A DNA stretch of 64,000 nt. Source: an uncultured candidate division Zixibacteria bacterium (GTDB lineage: Bacteria > Zixibacteria > MSB-5A5 > UBA10806). Shown here piece by piece: positions 1,341 to 47,685 of the stretch (position 1 is its first letter; each line of letters begins with the position of its first letter). The notes below the pieces were generated by a model. The model searched no databases. It was not told the DNA's origin and saw nothing but the letters and a program-made list of their open reading frames with translations. The stretch spans positions 288,001 through 352,000 of the forward strand of contig CAWFQL010000016.1 of assembly GCA_963817915.1 (NCBI GenBank), read 5' to 3'. The position numbers were made by a program, and so were the translations under genes.

Positions 1341-2027
1341 TTATTTTCTAAATATCAGCCCAAACCTCACGGGCACAAATGCTATTTTGCCGGGCCAAGT
1401 ATTGCCCTTTATATAGGTAAAATCAAATAATATGGCAACATGTCTTCCAAGCTTGTAATCTACACCCGCCCCTGCCAAAAACGCCCCTGCGCTTTTGTAA
1501 CTGATTTTAACGAATGGCAGATCAATTGAATTGCTTCTAATCTCAGTTCTTGATCTATGAAGATATCCAAATCCGATTGATATAAAGGGCACTATCTTCT
1601 TTGATTCATGCGTCAACATAAATTTCGCTCGAAATATCCCCGTAACGACATTGACATCCCTACCCCAAGTTGCGTTCACTTCCATATACGGATAGGAGAT
1701 TAGCGATCCCGATTTATCAAAACTAAAATTGTCATATTCCAATTCAAACCAATTTTGCTGATACCCCTGCCAAATTGAAAAGGGTATCCGCGCGCCAGCC
1801 GCAAGAGAAAATCCGCCAGTGTATAAGTCACTAAATGCACTATTTCCTGCAGGTCCGGTAGAGCCCATGGAAATGAAGAACTCCGTTATTCCACCCTCTG
1901 ATGCTAATGAAATTGAAAAAGCGCTGAAAAATATTAAAGCCGATGTCCTTAGATAAATACAAATCTTTCTCGGGACGACGCCAAAACCGAATGTACTATG
2001 CGCCTTTATTGTGTTCCTGTTATCCAT
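1341..2027 (-). CDS. Outer-membrane beta-barrel protein (OmpW/OmpA-like), start uncertain
   Basis: Alternating beta strands, PFISIGFGY, AGAGVDY, aromatic residue near the C-terminus. Confidence 0.65.
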   Translation of the reverse strand: MDNRNTIKAHSTFGFGVVPRKICIYLRTSALIFFSAFSISLASEGGITEFFISMGSTGPAGNSAFSDLYTGGFSLAAGARIPFSIWQGYQQNWFELEYDNFSFDKSGSLISYPYMEVNATWGRDVNVVTGIFRAKFMLTHESKKIVPFISIGFGYLHRSRTEIRSNSIDLPFVKISYKSAGAFLAGAGVDYKLGRHVAILFDFTYIKGNTWPGKIAFVPVRFGLIFRK

Positions 2028-28586: not shown

Positions 28587-29480
28587 TTAACCCTCTTTAT
28601 GAAATACATCGAATATCGCTTTGATGGCCGGATGCTCGATTCGTCTTTCCGCAGTTACCGCGTAGAAGCGTTCTTTGACATGGGGAAGCCGAAGCAATGG
28701 TTTTACGTGAAGCTGCTTACAGATCGAAACCTCGATGAAGCTGGGAACGGCGAAAATCCCGTGAGCGCTCATTCCATATTCGGCAAGCATTCCGCTATCC
28801 TCGAATTCCGCTATAACGTTGGGCCGAAGCTTTTTGGCAACAAACCATTCATCAAGCCCGCGTCGCAAGGAAGTATTCGCTGTTGTAAGCAGAAAAGGAG
28901 CGCCATTTAGAGAATTCGGAACGTTTTTTCGATATTTGGAGACAACCGCGGGAACCGCTACCAAGCTTATGCCGCTTTCAATTAGCAAATGATTAAATAC
29001 TTTAAAGCCCGCCGATGGCGGGATTGGATTATCTACTAAAAGCATATCAAGAGCATGAAGGGTCAGTTCCGGCAGAAGTCTTTCGTATCTGCCCTCATTA
29101 CACAATAAGCGGATATCCTTATTTTTCGTCCAAATCGGTTCAAGAATTTTTCGAGCGGTCTGCTTGGATATGGCGTCCACAATGCCCACCGTAAATACCT
29201 GCGGCCTGCCGGTCGGTCTGTCGCGAACCGTATCAAGCATTTCATGGCCAAGCAGAAATATCTCGTCGGCGTATTGATAGACAATTCTGCCCATTTCGGT
29301 CAAAACAAGCTTTCGACCGGGACGATTAAACAGCTTTTCGCCCAGTGATTCTTGAAAATCTTTAAGCTGACCGCTAACAGTTGAAGAGGAAAGATGGAGT
29401 TTTGCCGCCGCCGGGGCAATTCCACCTTCTTTAACGACAGAACAGAAATACAGTAAATGATGATAATTAAGCCACTCCAC
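28587..29480 (-). CDS. nhaR: LysR-family regulator, NhaR-like
   Basis: MEWLNYHHLLYF N-terminus, AEFEDSG, RRIEHPA. Confidence 0.85.
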   Translation of the reverse strand: MEWLNYHHLLYFCSVVKEGGIAPAAAKLHLSSSTVSGQLKDFQESLGEKLFNRPGRKLVLTEMGRIVYQYADEIFLLGHEMLDTVRDRPTGRPQVFTVGIVDAISKQTARKILEPIWTKNKDIRLLCNEGRYERLLPELTLHALDMLLVDNPIPPSAGFKVFNHLLIESGISLVAVPAVVSKYRKNVPNSLNGAPFLLTTANTSLRRGLDEWFVAKKLRPNVIAEFEDSGMLAEYGMSAHGIFAVPSFIEVSICKQLHVKPLLRLPHVKERFYAVTAERRIEHPAIKAIFDVFHKEG

Positions 29481-41395: not shown

Positions 41396-43913
41396 ATGAG
41401 GCGAGCGCTGAATCATTTGACGATCATGTTCTTATTCCTGATAATATTTTCGGCGTCGATTGTAAATGCCGCTGAAAGATTCGGAGATCACCGTATATAT
41501 CCGAACAGTGCCATTGGCAATTGGAACAATAACCTGGATCACTTTATAAATTCATCTTCGAGGCAGCCACTTCAAACGTTCCCGCGAACCCTTGATGCGA
41601 ACGATTCTTTATGGACTGATCGTTTTTCAACTCCGGCCGGGCTCGGCGGAGGATGCAATGCTTCTTGTGAATTCAATGGGTTATTGATCGCCGCGGGATA
41701 TTTCGAGGCCGCCGGATGTACTCTGGCAGCCAAAATTGCCTCCTGGGATGGTTCTCGATGGAGTCCGCTTGGTTCCGGAATAACCGGACCCTACAGTCAA
41801 GTCTACTCACTAATAGTTTATGACAGCATGCTAATTGCCGCCGGGTTATTTGATTCCGCCGGCTCGGTCAGCGCAAATAATATTGCCGCCTGGAATGGTT
41901 CAACATGGTCGCCGCTTGGATCGGGGATGAACCGCCGAATACATTCATTGGCGATATACGGTGGTGATTTAATTGCAGGCGGAGAATTTGATACGGCAGG
42001 GGGTAACCCGGCTGCATTTATCGCTGTCTGGAATGGCTCAAATTGGGCAAGCTTTGGGACTGGATTAAATATGTCAGTGTCTGCACTTACAAATTTCGAC
42101 ACGATGCTTGTAGCTGGGGGCGGATTTGATACCGCCGGAACCTCAGCAGCTTATTATATCGCAGCCTGGGACGGCTCAGATTGGCAGCCTTTAGGGAACC
42201 GGCCTGGATAATGCTCCCTATGCCTTGACAGTTTATAATGGCAACTTGATTGCGGCAGGCGGATTTGCATTGGCAGGCGATGTCGGCGCAAATTCTGTCG
42301 CGTCATGGGATGGTGTTACCTGGGAGCCGTTGGGAGAAGGCATAACGGGGGATTTTGAAACCTCGGTTTCTGGTTTGGCCGTATATGATAGCAATCTAAT
42401 AGCAATTGGCAATTTCTCGACTGCTGGCGGCGTCAGCGTTAATAATATTGCATCATGGAATGGTGTATCGTGGTCGAGTCTCGGCTCAGGTTTAAATTAT
42501 GAAGGCAGCAATCTAACAATTATTAATGGCAATTTGATCGCCGGGGGATATTTCTATACTGCCGGAAATACTGGCGCCTATTGTATCGCATCATGGAATG
42601 GCTCAACATGGTCATCGATAAATCCAGGTACCAATTATATCGTTACCGGCCTGAGCATCTATAATGGGCAATTGATTGCTGGCGGAGATTTCATCTCAAT
42701 ATGCGGGATAGACGCCCAGCGTATTGCATCCTGGTCCGGTACAACCTGGTCATCATTGGGGACAGGTACAAATGCAATGGTCGAGGGTCTCACAATTTTT
42801 CAAGATAAACTTATCGCCAGTGGATATTTCGATACTGCTGGGGGAGTTAATGCGAATAAAGTCGCCGCATGGGATGGCGCCGACTGGACAGCCCTGGGGA
42901 CGGGAATTACTGGAGATGTTGGAAGTTGCGTTATCACCCTTGCAGTATTTGATAGCAGTCTTATAGTTGGGGGATATTTTGATACTGCCGGGTCAGTTGA
43001 AGCAAATAATATTGCGGCATGGAATGGTTCAGATTGGTCTTCATTGGACTGCAACATGACTGGCGACTTCCCAATGGTAAATGCCTTAACAGTCTACAAT
43101 AACCAGCTGATAGCGGCAGGATCGTTTGATTCGGCAAACGGTATCGACGCTAACGGTATTGCCGCCTGGGATGGTTCGACCTGGTCATCATTGGGCAGCG
43201 GCGTGGACGCTCCATACCCTCCCACAGTTCGAGCATTGGTGGTCTACGATAGCATGCTTATCGCGGCTGGCGATTTTTATTCCGCGGGTGGCGTTAGCGC
43301 GATGGGGGTTGCCGCTTGGGACGGCAATTCCTGGTCTGCATTGGGAAATGGTTTGGAAAACGACATTTGGGCTCTTACTGTTTATGACGGCAAGCTATTC
43401 GCCGGCGGATATTTTTATATGTCAGGCGCGGATATAGTTCCGAGGGTCGCCTCGTGGGATGGAGCTTCATGGTCATCCTTGGGTTCAGGAGTGGATGGCG
43501 GCGTATTTGCTTTAATTCCATACGATAATTCATTAATAGTCGGAGGCGGTTTCATGATCGCGGGAAGCGCAGTCTCCGCATTTTTGGCTCAATGGAACAA
43601 AACCAGCAGTCAGGGTATTGGCGGAGACGACCGAGGCATAAACATTCCATCAAAACATATAATCTCTCGCAATTATCCTAATCCTTTTAATAGCACTACC
43701 GCAATAAATTATTCTCTTCCCATTTCCGGAGAAGTGTCAATTAGCATTTATGATATCCTTGGCCGTAATGTAAAAACATTGAAGGAAGGTCTAAAGCAAG
43801 CGGGCAATCATCAAGTTACATGGGATGCCAATAATCAATCGACCGGTGTCTATTTCTATAAGATTCAATCCGGCGATTTTGCGGCCACCAAGAAGATGTT
43901 ATTGCTGAAATAG
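41396..43913 (+). CDS. Secreted 14-blade beta-propeller repeat protein with T9SS/FlgD-like C-terminal domain, frameshifted at ~42195
   Basis: 14 repeats of LIAGGxFxxAGGxxAxxIAxWDGxxW across two frames; NYPNPFN...GVYFYKI...KKMLLLK; removing one G restores LGTGLDNAPYAL. Confidence 0.82.
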
Positions 43914-44022: not shown

Positions 44023-45564
44023 CTATTTTTCAAATTGCGCGGCGCGATAGGCTTTCGTGTGAAAATGTCTGCCTAAATTGTTTGTTCCTTTTTGGCCATA
44101 CATCGCAGGCGCATCGACTTCGTAAGGCCCGTCATAACCATTTCGTCCAATTTTATCGCCATCGAATGCAATAGTGATTGTCCTCTTGCCGGCCTCGAGA
44201 TAGCCTTCGCCGAATGTGTAGATATTATTATTGTTTATGCCTCCAGGGCAAAACAATATCCCCTGCCAATGGTAATAATCGCTTTCTCTAATATCCACGT
44301 CCAACATAACGACCAGCGAATCATAAAGGCCATCGCCGTCAATATCGATCCCTCGATCGGCAAAATTGCCGGCAATCTCAAGCCCGCCGCCCTGAAATTC
44401 CCAGACGCTGTATTTTTTGGTAACATAGGCATTTTCGATATAGTCAACTAAGTAACCCATTTCTTCATCCATAATTGACAGGGAAAGATGTCCGAGATGA
44501 TAGGGACCGTCTGATCTGCCCTTATAGATATTATTGCCATCGAAAGCCAAAAGCACTTCGCTGTCTTGACTGGTTAGAAAAGTGTCGAGATAAGCGCTTG
44601 CGATTATCTTACCGTCACTGTTATCAAGCTCCCCTGCGATACTATATTTATCAAGGTCTGTTACTTTCACGCCAACCTTTACGTAAAGCTTGTCGATTAA
44701 GTTGTCAGCATTGGTGTCCCGCGTATATTCGCTGAATGTGCCATCAAACTTCGCCTTGCTTTTAGCTATGCCGAGACCGACGCCGCCATTTCTCGTGAAT
44801 GGTTCCGAGCCGCCCTTTTGAGCTCTGACCGAGATGTTCAGACTTCCCGTTAAGGATGGCTTAGAATATGTGCAAGTATAATATCCATCGTCTGCGATAG
44901 AATCACGGTGAGTGCCATCATCATACATCGCAAGAGTATCGATCGCTTCAATCACTTTCCAGATGAATGCCTCAACAGTCGCCCCAGTTACCGGCTCTTT
45001 ACCTTTCTTCAAAATAGACGTCACTACAATGGTATCACCCCTGAAGTAATATTCTTTATCCTTTTTCACTTCGAGCTTTATTTCAGAGCCATCGAAAAAT
45101 GCCGTCAAAGTGTAGTAAGTAATTTTATCGTTTTCTTTGCCGGGGGATACTTCCACAATCCATTTACCGACTGGCGGGTTAATTCCAAATGTGATATATA
45201 CCATATTCATATCTGGCACGTTAAGATAAGAGTTGAACTTATTTTGATCGGCCGTCGCCGAATCCGTCCGGATGCCTTTGGGGTCGGTTGCTGCCAACTG
45301 GAGATTTCCGGAACCGAAGCAGGTAAATGATACCATATTAGATTTGTCGATATTAATTTCGTGCCTGTTGACATGTCCCGGTAAAACACTATCGGCCACC
45401 GCAAATGACATCTGCATTTCATCTGATAGGGAATCAGCCGTCGAATCGGAATTGTCATTTGACTGTCCCAAGCCCGGCTGCATGGCTTCGGTTCTCGCCG
45501 CGAACGAGACGCAGATAATGCAAATTGCCAGGCTTATCAAAATGTATCGCGAGTATTTTTTCAT
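44023..45564 (-). CDS. Secreted Ig-like / Ca-binding domain protein (choice-of-anchor X-like motif)
   Basis: Signal peptide; MYDDGTHRDSIADDGYYT; two related DxxxDxLxDxL...GPY domains. Confidence 0.6.
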   Translation of the reverse strand: MKKYSRYILISLAICIICVSFAARTEAMQPGLGQSNDNSDSTADSLSDEMQMSFAVADSVLPGHVNRHEINIDKSNMVSFTCFGSGNLQLAATDPKGIRTDSATADQNKFNSYLNVPDMNMVYITFGINPPVGKWIVEVSPGKENDKITYYTLTAFFDGSEIKLEVKKDKEYYFRGDTIVVTSILKKGKEPVTGATVEAFIWKVIEAIDTLAMYDDGTHRDSIADDGYYTCTYSKPSLTGSLNISVRAQKGGSEPFTRNGGVGLGIAKSKAKFDGTFSEYTRDTNADNLIDKLYVKVGVKVTDLDKYSIAGELDNSDGKIIASAYLDTFLTSQDSEVLLAFDGNNIYKGRSDGPYHLGHLSLSIMDEEMGYLVDYIENAYVTKKYSVWEFQGGGLEIAGNFADRGIDIDGDGLYDSLVVMLDVDIRESDYYHWQGILFCPGGINNNNIYTFGEGYLEAGKRTITIAFDGDKIGRNGYDGPYEVDAPAMYGQKGTNNLGRHFHTKAYRAAQFEK

Positions 45565-45722
45565 TGCATTTCCTTTGGCTTAACGAGATCAGATCTATTA
45601 GACTGAGAAGATTTTAATATATAAACAATCTGACGACAACAATAATTATGATGGAATGTTTTTGTTAGATTTTAGCTTGAAGGCGGGGCTTGGATTTGAA
45701 CCAAGGATCCGCCGTAGGCGAA

Positions 45723-45977
45723 TTATGAGCCCAACAAGCTACCGTTCTCGATCTCATCCAGAAAACATCTTCCGGCTCCGCTCTTCAACCATTTTTCCCT
45801 TCTCATGGCTTCCGAGCGCGTAGAATAGATTTCCTTATGAATTAATATCCAGTTGGAATCACGACTGGTATATTTGCTTATCCCCGTGTTATGCTGATCT
45901 AACCTCTTCGAAAGGTCCTCGGTATAACCTATATATCGAATTCCACCTGCAGAACGTATGACATAGACCGTAAACAT
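45723..45977 (-). CDS. GIY-YIG nuclease family protein (84 aa), copy 3 (distal)
   Basis: VYVIRS..RYIGYT.DL.KRL.QHN..EAMRREKWLKSG. Confidence 0.88.
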   Translation of the reverse strand: MFTVYVIRSAGGIRYIGYTEDLSKRLDQHNTGISKYTSRDSNWILIHKEIYSTRSEAMRREKWLKSGAGRCFLDEIENGSLLGS

Positions 45978-46044
45978 CAAAAAAATATTGGCCAATAAAA
46001 AATAGCGGGGCTTGGATTTGAACCAAGGATCCGCCATAGGCGGA

Positions 46045-46299
46045 TTATGAGCCCGACCTCTTTCCGTTTTCGATCTCATCCAGAAAACGTCTGCCCGCTC
46101 CACTCTTCAACCATTTTTCCCTTCTCATGGCTTCAGAGCGCGTAGAATAGATTTCCTTATGAATTAATATCCAGTTGGAATCACGACTGGTATATTTGCT
46201 TATCCCCGTGTTATGCTGATCTAACCTCTTCGAAAGGTCCTCGGTATAACCTATATATCGAATTCCACCTGCAGAACGTATGACATAGACCGTAAACAT
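46045..46299 (-). CDS. GIY-YIG nuclease family protein (84 aa), copy 2
   Basis: Same motifs; C-terminus NGKRSGS. Confidence 0.88.
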   Translation of the reverse strand: MFTVYVIRSAGGIRYIGYTEDLSKRLDQHNTGISKYTSRDSNWILIHKEIYSTRSEAMRREKWLKSGAGRRFLDEIENGKRSGS

Positions 46300-46366
46300 C
46301 AAAAAAATATTGGCCAATAAAAAATAGCGGGGCTTGGATTTGAACCAAGGATCCGCCGTAGGCGGA

Positions 46367-46621
46367 TTATGAGCCCAACAAGCTACCGTTCTCGATCTCA
46401 TCCAGAAAACGTCTGCCCGCTCCACTCTTCAACCATTTTTCCCTTCTCATGGCTTCAGAGCGCGTAGAATAATTTTCTTTATGAATCAATTTCCAATCGG
46501 TATCACGACTGGTATATTTGCTTATTCCTGTATTATGCTGAGCTAACCTTTTAGAAAGATCTTCAGTATAGCCTATATATCGAATTCCACCAGTAGAACG
46601 TATGACATAAACCGTAAACAT
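46367..46621 (-). CDS. GIY-YIG nuclease family protein (84 aa), copy 1 (tRNA-proximal)
   Basis: Same motifs; diverged from copies 2 and 3 mainly at synonymous sites. Confidence 0.88.
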   Translation of the reverse strand: MFTVYVIRSTGGIRYIGYTEDLSKRLAQHNTGISKYTSRDTDWKLIHKENYSTRSEAMRREKWLKSGAGRRFLDEIENGSLLGS

Positions 46622-46646
46622 CAAAAAGATATTTAGCAATAAAAAA

Positions 46647-46720
<74 letters not shown>

Positions 46721-46754
46721 TCGTTTCTTCTTATTTTTTGATCTATCGCTCGTT

Positions 46755-46798
46755 CCCGACGAGCTACTCCGCCTGCGGCGGACTCCACCCCGCGTCGT
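46755..46798 (-). repeat. tRNA-fMet 5'-half copy with the D-loop replaced by a palindrome
   Basis: ACGA-CGCGGGGTGGAG-TCCGCCGCAGGCGGA-GTAGCTCGTCGGG. Confidence 0.88.
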
Positions 46799-46887
46799 AT
46801 TAACTTTATTTATCAACCCTGCATATCTAAAAGTCGTTCCCAATTAATCCACATCTGAACGACCAAAAACATTTGCGGGCCGATGAC

Positions 46888-46915
46888 AATATAGATTTCA
46901 AAATTACAATGTCAA
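46888..46915 (-). promoter_or_regulatory. Sigma70 promoter upstream of the tRNA/GIY-YIG array
   Basis: TTGACA-N16-TATATT on the minus strand. Confidence 0.6.
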
Positions 46916-46941
46916 GTCTAATGATTTAAGAAAATATGGAA

Positions 46942-47685
46942 TTAACTATTCGATGAAATATATTCCCCATCAACTTTAACTATAACCAAATCAATTTCAA
47001 AATCCTTGCCCGAATCGGCAACTGCCTTTTCCACCATAGCCAAAAGTCCCCTGCAACAGGGCACCTCCATGATCGCGACACGAATACTTGGAATATCATT
47101 ATTCATAATTATTGCTGATAGCTTTGCGATATATCCCGATAAGTCATCCAATTTCGGGCAGGCGATCACCAGAGAATTTCCCTTAAGCAAATTGTCGTGA
47201 AAGCTGGCATCGCTGAACGCCACACAATCGGCGGCAATCAATAGCTCGCGGCCACTGAAATATGGCGCCAATGGCGATACCAGGCGCAATTGAATCGGCC
47301 ATTGAGTCAGTTCTGATTGTCTATCCGAATCGCTTTTTGAAGGAATTGTAGTAGAAGATTTTCGCTCGATAGACATAGTTCTCGAACCCGGACATCCCGT
47401 AAAATCATGCGCTGATTTTCTTTCCGCGGGTTTCGTTTTTTGAATGATATTCGTGTTTGCCTGTGCAGATTTTTCATCAAATTCAGGCGCGTAGCGTTTG
47501 ATCACAATCATCGCTTCTTGGGGACATTCGCCGACACAGGCGCCCATGCCATCGCATAATGTTTCCGATACCAACCTGGCTTTGCCATCGATAATTGCAA
47601 GTGCGCCTTCGGGACATGACGGTATGCAAAGGCCGCATCCATCGCATTTAGATTCGTCGATTAGTATAATATCTCTCAATGACAT
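46942..47685 (-). CDS. 2x[4Fe-4S] ferredoxin-domain protein
   Basis: CDGCGLCIPSCP, CDGMGACVGECP, GCPGS, AADC, CPKLD, MEVPCC. Confidence 0.85.
   Translation of the reverse strand: MSLRDIILIDESKCDGCGLCIPSCPEGALAIIDGKARLVSETLCDGMGACVGECPQEAMIVIKRYAPEFDEKSAQANTNIIQKTKPAERKSAHDFTGCPGSRTMSIERKSSTTIPSKSDSDRQSELTQWPIQLRLVSPLAPYFSGRELLIAADCVAFSDASFHDNLLKGNSLVIACPKLDDLSGYIAKLSAIIMNNDIPSIRVAIMEVPCCRGLLAMVEKAVADSGKDFEIDLVIVKVDGEYISSNS

Follow-up and report, generated by a model that had tools for sequence, protein, structure and literature searches.

In this work we describe an array of small nuclease genes at a tRNA gene in a stretch of 64,000 nucleotides of DNA (the window throughout this text) from an uncultured candidate division Zixibacteria bacterium (contig CAWFQL010000016.1 of assembly GCA_963817915.1, positions 288,001 to 352,000). 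On the minus strand of the window an initiator-type tRNA-Met gene is followed by three tandem units, each of which encodes a GIY-YIG protein of 84 amino acids (aa) and ends in a broken copy of the tRNA. On balance, our analysis favours the view that these units are tRNA-embedded, hairpin-associated GIY-YIG mobile cassettes, the end of whose open reading frame (ORF) is a fossil of the target gene. The observations behind this view are the anatomy of the array, its recurrence at other loci, purifying selection on the ORFs, the presence or absence of units at one syntenic locus and the dispersal of the palindrome that accompanies the ORFs. The layout, which recurs at many tRNA genes in several phyla, looks like an undescribed selfish DNA cassette.

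The three units lie directly 3' of the intact tRNA, are 322 nt long each and share a mutual identity of 91-95% over 300 nt. Each is composed of a 25-nt spacer, an 84-aa ORF with the start MFTVYV and the broken tRNA copy. The features of the array are the following:

46647..46720, minus strand: intact initiator-type tRNA-Met(CAT), called by ARAGORN; Rfam tRNA, 62.7 bits
46367..46621, minus strand: GIY-YIG ORF of unit 3, 84 aa plus stop, ATG at 46621, 25 nt 3' of the tRNA
46367..46387, minus strand: tRNA-derived tail of unit 3, GSLLGS and stop, tRNA positions 19-39 with two C to T changes
46352..46366, minus strand: palindrome of unit 3, TCCGCCTACGGCGGA, in place of tRNA positions 40-47
46327..46351, minus strand: T arm and acceptor 3' strand of the broken tRNA in unit 3, with 100% identity to the intact gene
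46045..46299, minus strand: GIY-YIG ORF of unit 2, ATG at 46299, tail GKRSGS and stop
46005..46044, minus strand: palindrome of unit 2, TCCGCCTATGGCGGA (46044..46030), and copy of the tRNA 3' end (46029..46005)
45723..45977, minus strand: GIY-YIG ORF of unit 1, ATG at 45977, tail GSLLGS and stop (45743..45723)
45683..45722, minus strand: imperfect palindrome of unit 1, TTCGCCTACGGCGGA (45722..45708), and terminal copy of the tRNA 3' end (45707..45683)

At raw positions 19-39 the intact tRNA reads GGTAGCTCGTCGGGCTCATAA, from which the tails of units 3 and 1 differ by the two C to T changes. The TAA that ends the ORFs consists of the last anticodon base and the next two bases of the loop. Directly 3' of this stop the palindrome TCCGCC-N3-GGCGGA displaces eight tRNA bases, 40-47 (CCCGAAGG). 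The T arm and the acceptor 3' strand then follow as 25 nt that are 100% identical across all four copies, and at the right border of the array, in unit 1, the similarity to the tRNA stops at about position 72. In unit 2 the tRNA match is limited to the last 13 nt of the ORF, GTCGGGCTCATAA (46057..46045). A preliminary description of this locus had read the ends of copies 1 and 3 as GGT AGC TTG TTG GGC TCA TAA (45743..45723 and 46387..46367, minus strand), with the TAA in the anticodon loop, the palindrome immediately 3' of it and a shorter tRNA match in copy 2, and this is confirmed in every detail. It had also fixed the crossover near the D-loop of the tRNA. This part could not be upheld, as the tRNA identity starts at raw positions from 19 to 31 within the subclass to which the window belongs, and at position 27 in copy 2. 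As a control, 348 random segments were aligned to the tRNA, yielding a maximal local alignment score of 27.4 and a mean of 15.4. The scores of 72-80 for the ORF end regions exceed this maximum, and the match of the ORF ends to the tRNA is thus not due to chance. The genome holds three CAT tRNAs, of which only the copy at 46720..46647 has the CGCGGGG...GGGCTCATAACCC features.

Unit 2 is a mosaic, since it resembles unit 1 over the 5' two-thirds of its length and unit 3 over the remaining third, and gene conversion therefore acts in the array. Furthermore, tail, palindrome and T arm of units 3 and 1 (46327-46392 and 45683-45748) fold as one extended DNA hairpin with the palindrome as its predicted tip, with z-scores of -3.2 (unit 3) and only -1.0 (unit 1). 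The C to T changes in the two tails permit pairing with the T-arm copy, and unit 2, in which these changes are missing, takes another predicted fold. As a weak hint from these folds, the extended hairpin may explain why the two C to T changes have been retained.

Two other interpretations of the array were rejected. A group I intron in tRNA-fMet does not agree with the position of the nuclease gene outside the intact tRNA, and Rfam at E<=1 over 45400-47000 reported nothing besides the tRNA, neither an intron nor a ribozyme. The palindrome is not a plain terminator either, as no T run lies 3' of it and 0 terminator-like hits were obtained on the minus strand.

Direct repeats of a tRNA 3' end downstream of the intact tRNA are also the classic signature of integrase islands and prophages, and the units could in principle be leftovers of such elements that were inserted at the tRNA 3' end and later deleted, leaving attachment-site repeats and a passenger gene behind. 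Islands of this kind target stable-RNA genes, and like them the array retains an intact gene, has a partial copy shifted to its far border as a direct repeat and shows tandem accretion. In addition, the sole viral match of the protein lies at a contig end beside a tRNA-Asn-like piece. In contrast to islands, however, the units measure only 0.3 kb, are arranged in tandem and each contain the same nuclease gene, and neither variable internal repeat starts nor a palindrome that replaces tRNA bases are products of an integrase crossover. No integrase or transposase was found near the array, neither tyrosine nor serine recombinase, and the units encode the GIY-YIG ORF only. An ORF for an HUH (Y1) transposase of the IS200/IS605 type is likewise missing, GIY-YIG being the sole Pfam domain. 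Thus, island leftovers are a disfavoured and highly improbable explanation as compared to nuclease-encoding cassettes.

All three copies of the protein match the GIY-YIG profile PF01541 with 54.4-55 bits (cut-off 22.6). The ATG at MFTVYV as the start of an 84-aa protein is backed by the alignment of homologues; longer ORF versions of 90 and 126 aa run through the upstream tRNA-derived DNA. Residues Y5, Y15, G17, R25 and E61 are invariant in 31 sequences comprising the three copies and 28 database relatives. In I-TevI and UvrC the Tyr of the GIY motif, the Tyr of the YIG motif, the Arg and the Glu have catalytic roles. The AF2 model reaches a pLDDT of 91, with values below 50 at residues 82-84 only, and contains the three-stranded sheet flanked by helices of the GIY-YIG fold (predicted strands 2-8, 14-19 and 44-51; predicted helices 22-31, 54-64 and 67-81). 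In this model the tRNA-coded residues 79-84 are located at and past the end of the last helix, and the catalytic domain fills the whole single-domain protein. The nearest solved structures are those of the UPF0213 (YhbQ-like) proteins BH0048/EF2693 followed by Slx1, which are the best matches in both sequence and fold (E values of 3.8e-13 and 5.1e-12), and the structure matches include UPF0213, Slx1, I-TevI and UvrC domains. Slx1 acts together with Slx4 on branched DNA, and neither UPF0213 nor Slx1 genes are known to be embedded in tRNA genes. NCBIfam assigns no family to the window protein. The three ORFs are under purifying selection, the ratio of non-synonymous to synonymous divergence (dN/dS) between the copies being 0.05-0.08 over codons 1-77 with a dS of up to 0.56.

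The recurrence of this layout was assessed in a scan with one genome per species, which identified 248 relatives. The best 80 loci were examined and gave 108 ORF rows. After removal of 8 rows (run-off, N or 5'-partial), 100 complete ORFs remained. An intact tRNA is located 5' on the same strand for 64 of the 100 ORFs, in 48 cases within 160 nt, and downstream only for 5; for 31, often at contig ends, the locus gave no call of an intact tRNA. In 86/100 ORFs the surroundings of the stop aligned to a tRNA above the maximum of a single-reference null, and with a stricter best-of-panel null for loci without an intact tRNA 61/69 plus 24/31 ORF ends match a tRNA. In 77 of the 86 the stop codon itself lies inside the tRNA-like stretch. 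A strict palindrome within -48 to +120 of the stop was present in 69/100 ORFs as compared to 17/336 control segments, some of which fall within neighbouring units. A separate metagenome set of 87 rows contained 77 complete ORFs, and here an intact tRNA abuts the gene in 43/77 (at most 160 nt upstream in 30, at most 80 nt downstream in 13); the metagenome ORFs with a local tRNA (n=44) span 20 anticodon types. Overall, the same design is found at tRNAs of at least 20 anticodon types and at tmRNA, in Zixibacteria, Ignavibacteria, Bacteroidota, Planctomycetota and Patescibacteria. The tails and stops differ between the tRNA classes (loci and genomes of the survey are given as L and G numbers):

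tRNA-Asn class (Planctomycetota): GGTAGAGC encodes GRA and the palindrome encodes SPPQAD; the stop is the TAA of the anticodon loop GTTAA
tRNA-Met class with the palindrome in the D-loop (e.g. L033): tail GWSPPKAE; the stop is the TAG of GGTAGCTC
tRNA-Met class with the palindrome in the T-loop (e.g. L014): the anticodon-loop TAA alone is borrowed
tRNA-Pro class (L054): the stop is the TAG of GGCTAG

As predicted, the tails of homologues at other tRNAs thus differ and match the respective tRNA. A tail of the GSLLGS type away from a tRNA was not seen among the ORFs surveyed: all 10 tails with G and then S or P before the stop precede a palindrome, in 2/10 in the imperfect TTCGCC form, and a tRNA-Met 3' part. 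A stronger form of this prediction was that tails follow tRNA identity rather than protein phylogeny, and here the outcome is divided. A tree of the protein core was built from 77 columns; of its 88 inner branches, 38 lack resolution. One branch of this tree has all 32 tRNA-Asn rows on the same side. Tail, tRNA type and protein clade coincide on this tree for Asn versus Met, so that tRNA identity cannot be separated from phylogeny in this comparison. Within the Met group, however, the three tail classes are interleaved (4, 3 and 7 changes), Lys-linked genes fall within the clade that contains all Asn rows, and Ser- and Pro-linked genes are found among the Met-linked ones; only in these groups are tRNA type and protein clade uncoupled, at the weak resolution of this tree. 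Taking all tail classes together, 22 changes are required on the tree, as compared to a minimum of 8 and a mean of 60 after shuffling.

As a separate observation, locus L218 (G045) contains four to five tandem repeats of about 100 nt, each with a hairpin and a T run, at about 1560-1980 on the reverse strand. They sit between a tRNA-Ser(TGA) and a distant GIY-YIG relative, and a short duplicated tRNA 3' end lies 3' of that gene.

At a tRNA-Ser locus (L074), the cassette-specific DNA ends in ...ACAT and the resident tRNA-Ser supplies AACGG, whereby a TAA is assembled at the junction. The tRNA remnants at this locus, one after the ORF and a small one before the intact tRNA, carry the D arm, the T loop and the acceptor stem GGAGAGC/GCTCTCC that is also present in 19/22 tRNA-Ser(TGA) genes of relatives. 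The intact tRNA-Ser copy reads GGAGGGT/ACCCTCC instead, both in this genome and in that of locus L211 (G041 and G057). At L211 (about 1440-1650, reverse strand) two palindromes stand in place of the anticodon arm of the resident tRNA-Ser, the remnants of which likewise carry GGAGAGC/GCTCTCC, and a complete tRNA-Ser(TGA) of the foreign type is situated between them. This locus contains no nuclease gene, and the arrangement looks like a palindrome-bounded cassette that carries a replacement tRNA only.

The preliminary description had stated that the ORF is completed only by joining its target. The junction at L074 bears on a strict version of this idea, in which the ORF of the free element would be incomplete and each integration would rebuild the C-terminus and the stop from the local tRNA, the tail and the tRNA part downstream of it always being target DNA. 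The TAA assembled with the lineage-typical resident tRNA-Ser allele at L074 agrees with this, as do the 77/86 stops within tRNA-like DNA. Furthermore, the tRNA 3' part after the ORF is identical to the local tRNA in 19/60 comparable ORFs, including 2 of the 3 units in the window (unit 1 differs at the last compared base), and the T stem of this part is species-specific within the window's subclass. Compensated exchanges in the T stem, compared between remnant and intact tRNA for the same 60 ORFs, are informative only at L054 (one compensated pair) and L074, most of the non-identical ones being disturbed by a palindrome in the T arm. Gene conversion in the arrays can, however, account for identical 3' parts. 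The palindrome occupies a constant position within each tail class while the start of the tRNA identity varies, copies 1 and 3 share both C to T changes despite a dS of 0.56 between their ORFs, and a free form has not been seen. Moreover, in loci with the mirrored order of a 5' tRNA piece with palindrome, the ORF and then the intact tRNA (L051, L078, L010 and L067), the ORF has its own stop beside the tRNA. The strict version is thus improbable, and the earlier statement is supported in part. The fixed palindrome position and the shared C to T changes argue for a tail that now travels with the unit and is not remade from the target each time. In our reading of these sequence comparisons, the tail would originally have been target sequence that in this clade is now inherited with the unit. 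A tail that is a fossil of the target gene explains why tails follow the tRNA type.

Four genera of one family (f1) were compared at the syntenic tRNA-fMet locus, which in each case lies downstream of the same 4Fe-4S gene. On the 5' side of the tRNA the window contains two further features:

46888..46915, minus strand: promoter-like site TTGACA-16-TATATT 5' of the tRNA locus, 11/12 consensus positions
46755..46794, minus strand: leader pseudo-tRNA consisting of tRNA positions 1-12, palindrome TCCGCCGCAGGCGGA (46782..46768, replacing the D-loop) and positions 20-32

The leader pseudo-tRNA starts exactly 74 nt 5' of the intact tRNA, with decayed DNA from its end down to 46721, and with its D-loop hairpin it is common to all four genera, the stem varying by compensated changes. 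Sites comparable to TTGACA..TATATT are found 5' of the same locus in the relatives L088, L092 and L095. The site at 46888..46915 probably serves as promoter of the tRNA, and transcripts that would enter the cassettes are likely to start from it; since no convincing promoter of their own was found for the nuclease ORFs, these are probably expressed by read-through from the tRNA promoter. The region 3' of the tRNA differs between the genera. The window genome (G000) contains three units of the post-anticodon type and G005 one unit of the D-loop type. In G001 (L088) only an ORF-less scar follows the tRNA (CATAA, hairpin, T arm and acceptor), and in G003 (L092) the tRNA is not followed by any unit. 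Instead, the leader pseudo-tRNA of 74 nt is present three times in tandem in G003, in the interval from the promoter to the intact tRNA, and the hairpin stems of these copies differ from that in the window by compensated changes.

These comparisons can also be viewed in terms of domestication. The proteins would then be Ssn-like host nucleases, acting for example on single-stranded DNA in transformation or repair, that were trapped once beside tRNAs; the arrays would have arisen by local duplication, unequal crossing-over and decay, and the overlap with the tRNA would be incidental compaction. Conservation of the leader pseudo-tRNA across the four genera, the low dN/dS of 0.05-0.08 in all three copies, the mosaic, gene-converted structure of the units and the mostly clade-specific tRNA type on the protein tree (Asn being one clade of 32 rows) are in line with such a history, and domestication has been proposed for NTS-ssnA-NTS, the published Ssn arrangement (Chenal et al. 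2025, PMC11893778). It fits less well with sister genera that differ in tail type, or have none, at the same syntenic tRNA, with a design that is spread over at least 20 anticodon types and tmRNA across the five phyla named above, with 22 tail-class changes on the tree where 8 would be the minimum, or with the foreign-type tRNA-Ser allele in the intact copy of G041 and G057. We therefore consider domestication rather unlikely and a mobile cassette the better description of these loci.

The palindrome is dispersed beyond the array. TCCGCC-N3/4-GGCGGA occurs in 46 copies in G000, as compared to 1 copy of the reversed pattern. These copies are mostly intergenic and in several repeat families cap longer palindromes: an outer stem of at least 6 was found at 11/46 copies as compared to 2.6% of 2000 control sites. 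The palindrome is typically nested at the tips of longer repeats as if it settled in hairpin loops. Apart from the array, it is present in the window at 29008-29022, and at 42 sites elsewhere in G000, for example as GTCATTGCGAA-palindrome-TGAAGCAATC.

Two relatives of the nuclease gene are located in the same genome. The first, a paralogue with 41% identity (G000 contig C12:473830-474490, L004), begins 24 nt 3' of the tmRNA gene (Rfam 185.6 bits). The TGA that ends it lies in the loop of GCCCGCC-TGA-GGCGGGC, which is followed by a further palindrome and a duplicate of the tmRNA 3' end. The second is an Ssn-like gene (68151-68372 in C17:67800-68500, L005; PF01541, 59 bits) that is flanked on both sides by pairs of inverted repeats. 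These repeats, about 15 of which occur in the genome, are almost identical to the published Neisseria NTS motif. This gene is a second, separate nuclease/hairpin pair in G000.

According to published work, Ssn proteins are site-specific GIY-YIG nucleases of about 94 aa that bind hairpin repeats (NTS/SRM) in single-stranded DNA and cut upstream of them, and their genes are bracketed by the hairpin repeat in a layout of repeat, gene and repeat that resembles insertion sequences (Chenal et al. 2025, Nat Commun, PMC11893778). The window cassettes share with them a single-domain GIY-YIG protein in the range of about 85-95 aa (84 aa here) whose gene is bracketed by a short GC-rich hairpin repeat, which is itself dispersed in the genome with the 46 copies mentioned above. 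In contrast to the Ssn modules, they have a different palindrome that lacks a conserved upstream flank of the GTCAT type, and they lie within tRNA or tmRNA genes, parts of which are duplicated, the remnant coding for the ORF end. The word tRNA occurs 0 times in the main text of the Ssn paper (PMC11893778) and only in gene descriptions in 13 of its 14 supplement files. By analogy, the cassette may work like an Ssn module, and we do not assign it to the Ssn family.

Free-standing GIY-YIG homing genes of the SegB/T-even type offer a further comparison. Seg proteins are larger and possess a DNA-binding domain, and the 84-aa protein contains no separate DNA-binding domain of the kind found in the Seg and I-TevI homing endonucleases. 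Like segB, the window units represent an intron-less nuclease gene among tRNA genes, and cutting of the SegB type promotes the inheritance of the gene and its flanks by repair (PMC2330249). In contrast to the window cassettes with their palindrome module and duplicated tRNA fragments, Seg genes are phage-borne and their ORF is self-contained.

From these parallels a possible mechanism can be outlined. The cassette consists of an 84-aa GIY-YIG gene related to Ssn, UPF0213 and Slx1, a conserved GC-rich palindrome and pieces of the host tRNA gene, of which one working copy is always retained. The nuclease ORF reaches the edge of the cassette-specific DNA without a conserved stop of its own and ends at the first in-frame stop of the adjoining tRNA remnant. 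The nuclease would recognise the palindrome as a hairpin in single-stranded DNA and nick beside it, as Ssn does. Repair of the break, or gene conversion, between the tRNA-homologous flanks would then copy, multiply and homogenise the units and might occasionally seed a cassette at other tRNA or tmRNA genes. In this scheme, we infer the specificity of the nuclease, the act of transposition or homing and the co-transcription with the tRNA from the arrangement of the genes. In its most far-reaching form, the scheme would describe mobile elements of about 0.3 kb that are autonomous although a hairpin-guided GIY-YIG nuclease is all they encode, with no recombinase. Their insertion sites would be the hairpin-forming parts of tRNA and tmRNA genes, and other palindromes in the case of the palindrome by itself. 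By bringing along or restoring a working copy of the gene they would cause the host no loss, and having given up a stop codon of their own they would use one in the anticodon loop or D arm of the broken gene. We put this form forward tentatively, as a possibility that falls short of being likely.

Several points weigh against a mobile cassette. Given gene conversion in the array, local duplication alone could yield three copies with identical tRNA parts. GIY-YIG enzymes cut only, and no joining activity is encoded in the cassette. The intact tRNA beside the cassette would seem to be still a target. Strong purifying selection, together with the long retention in family f1, agrees just as well with a domesticated host function. 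The window protein is only 33% identical (E 4e-9) to the canonical NTS-flanked Ssn-like paralogue in G000. Of the 27 matches of the published SRM motif in the genome (control: 14), none falls at the window locus. Relatives were found on 1 viral contig only, and a vehicle for horizontal spread was not identified. Finally, no movement was observed and the sequencing runs gave no population-level sign of gain or loss: in the public runs (24 listed) the locus was absent, the best share of 0.06 reflecting conserved tRNA words only.

If the units are indeed mobile cassettes, a large part of the small genes labelled as GIY-YIG nuclease family beside tRNAs, as yet without annotation, would belong to nuclease-plus-hairpin cassettes that remodel tRNA and tmRNA loci. 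Pseudo-tRNA fragments, spurious tRNA calls and tandem tRNA-like repeats in metagenome-assembled genomes would in many cases be explained in this way. Ssn-type nucleases for single-stranded DNA would gain a concrete selfish life style and a natural target, and the cassettes would be a source of compact nucleases that are specific for sequence and structure and have defined hairpin sites. A protein gene that ends in tRNA-derived codons and a tRNA-derived stop would represent a case of gene birth at an insertion junction. If the autonomous form were correct, prokaryotic mobile DNA would gain a new class, whose members would rank among the smallest self-encoded elements. Full-text searches of the literature outside of subscription journals yielded no description of GIY-YIG cassettes embedded in tRNA genes. 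New in this work are a quantified rule by which the ORF stops inside the tRNA or hairpin remnant, the case at tmRNA, the polymorphism at a syntenic locus and the comparison of resident and foreign alleles at tRNA-Ser.

The neighbouring genes of the array encode DUF4785-like, 4Fe-4S, NifU and Mrp/ParA-type proteins. Elsewhere in the window, two adjacent ORFs of 271 and 562 aa on the plus strand (41396-43913) share a beta-propeller-like repeat, and the second ends in a type IX secretion sorting domain; they may be one gene that is split by a frameshift or an assembly error.

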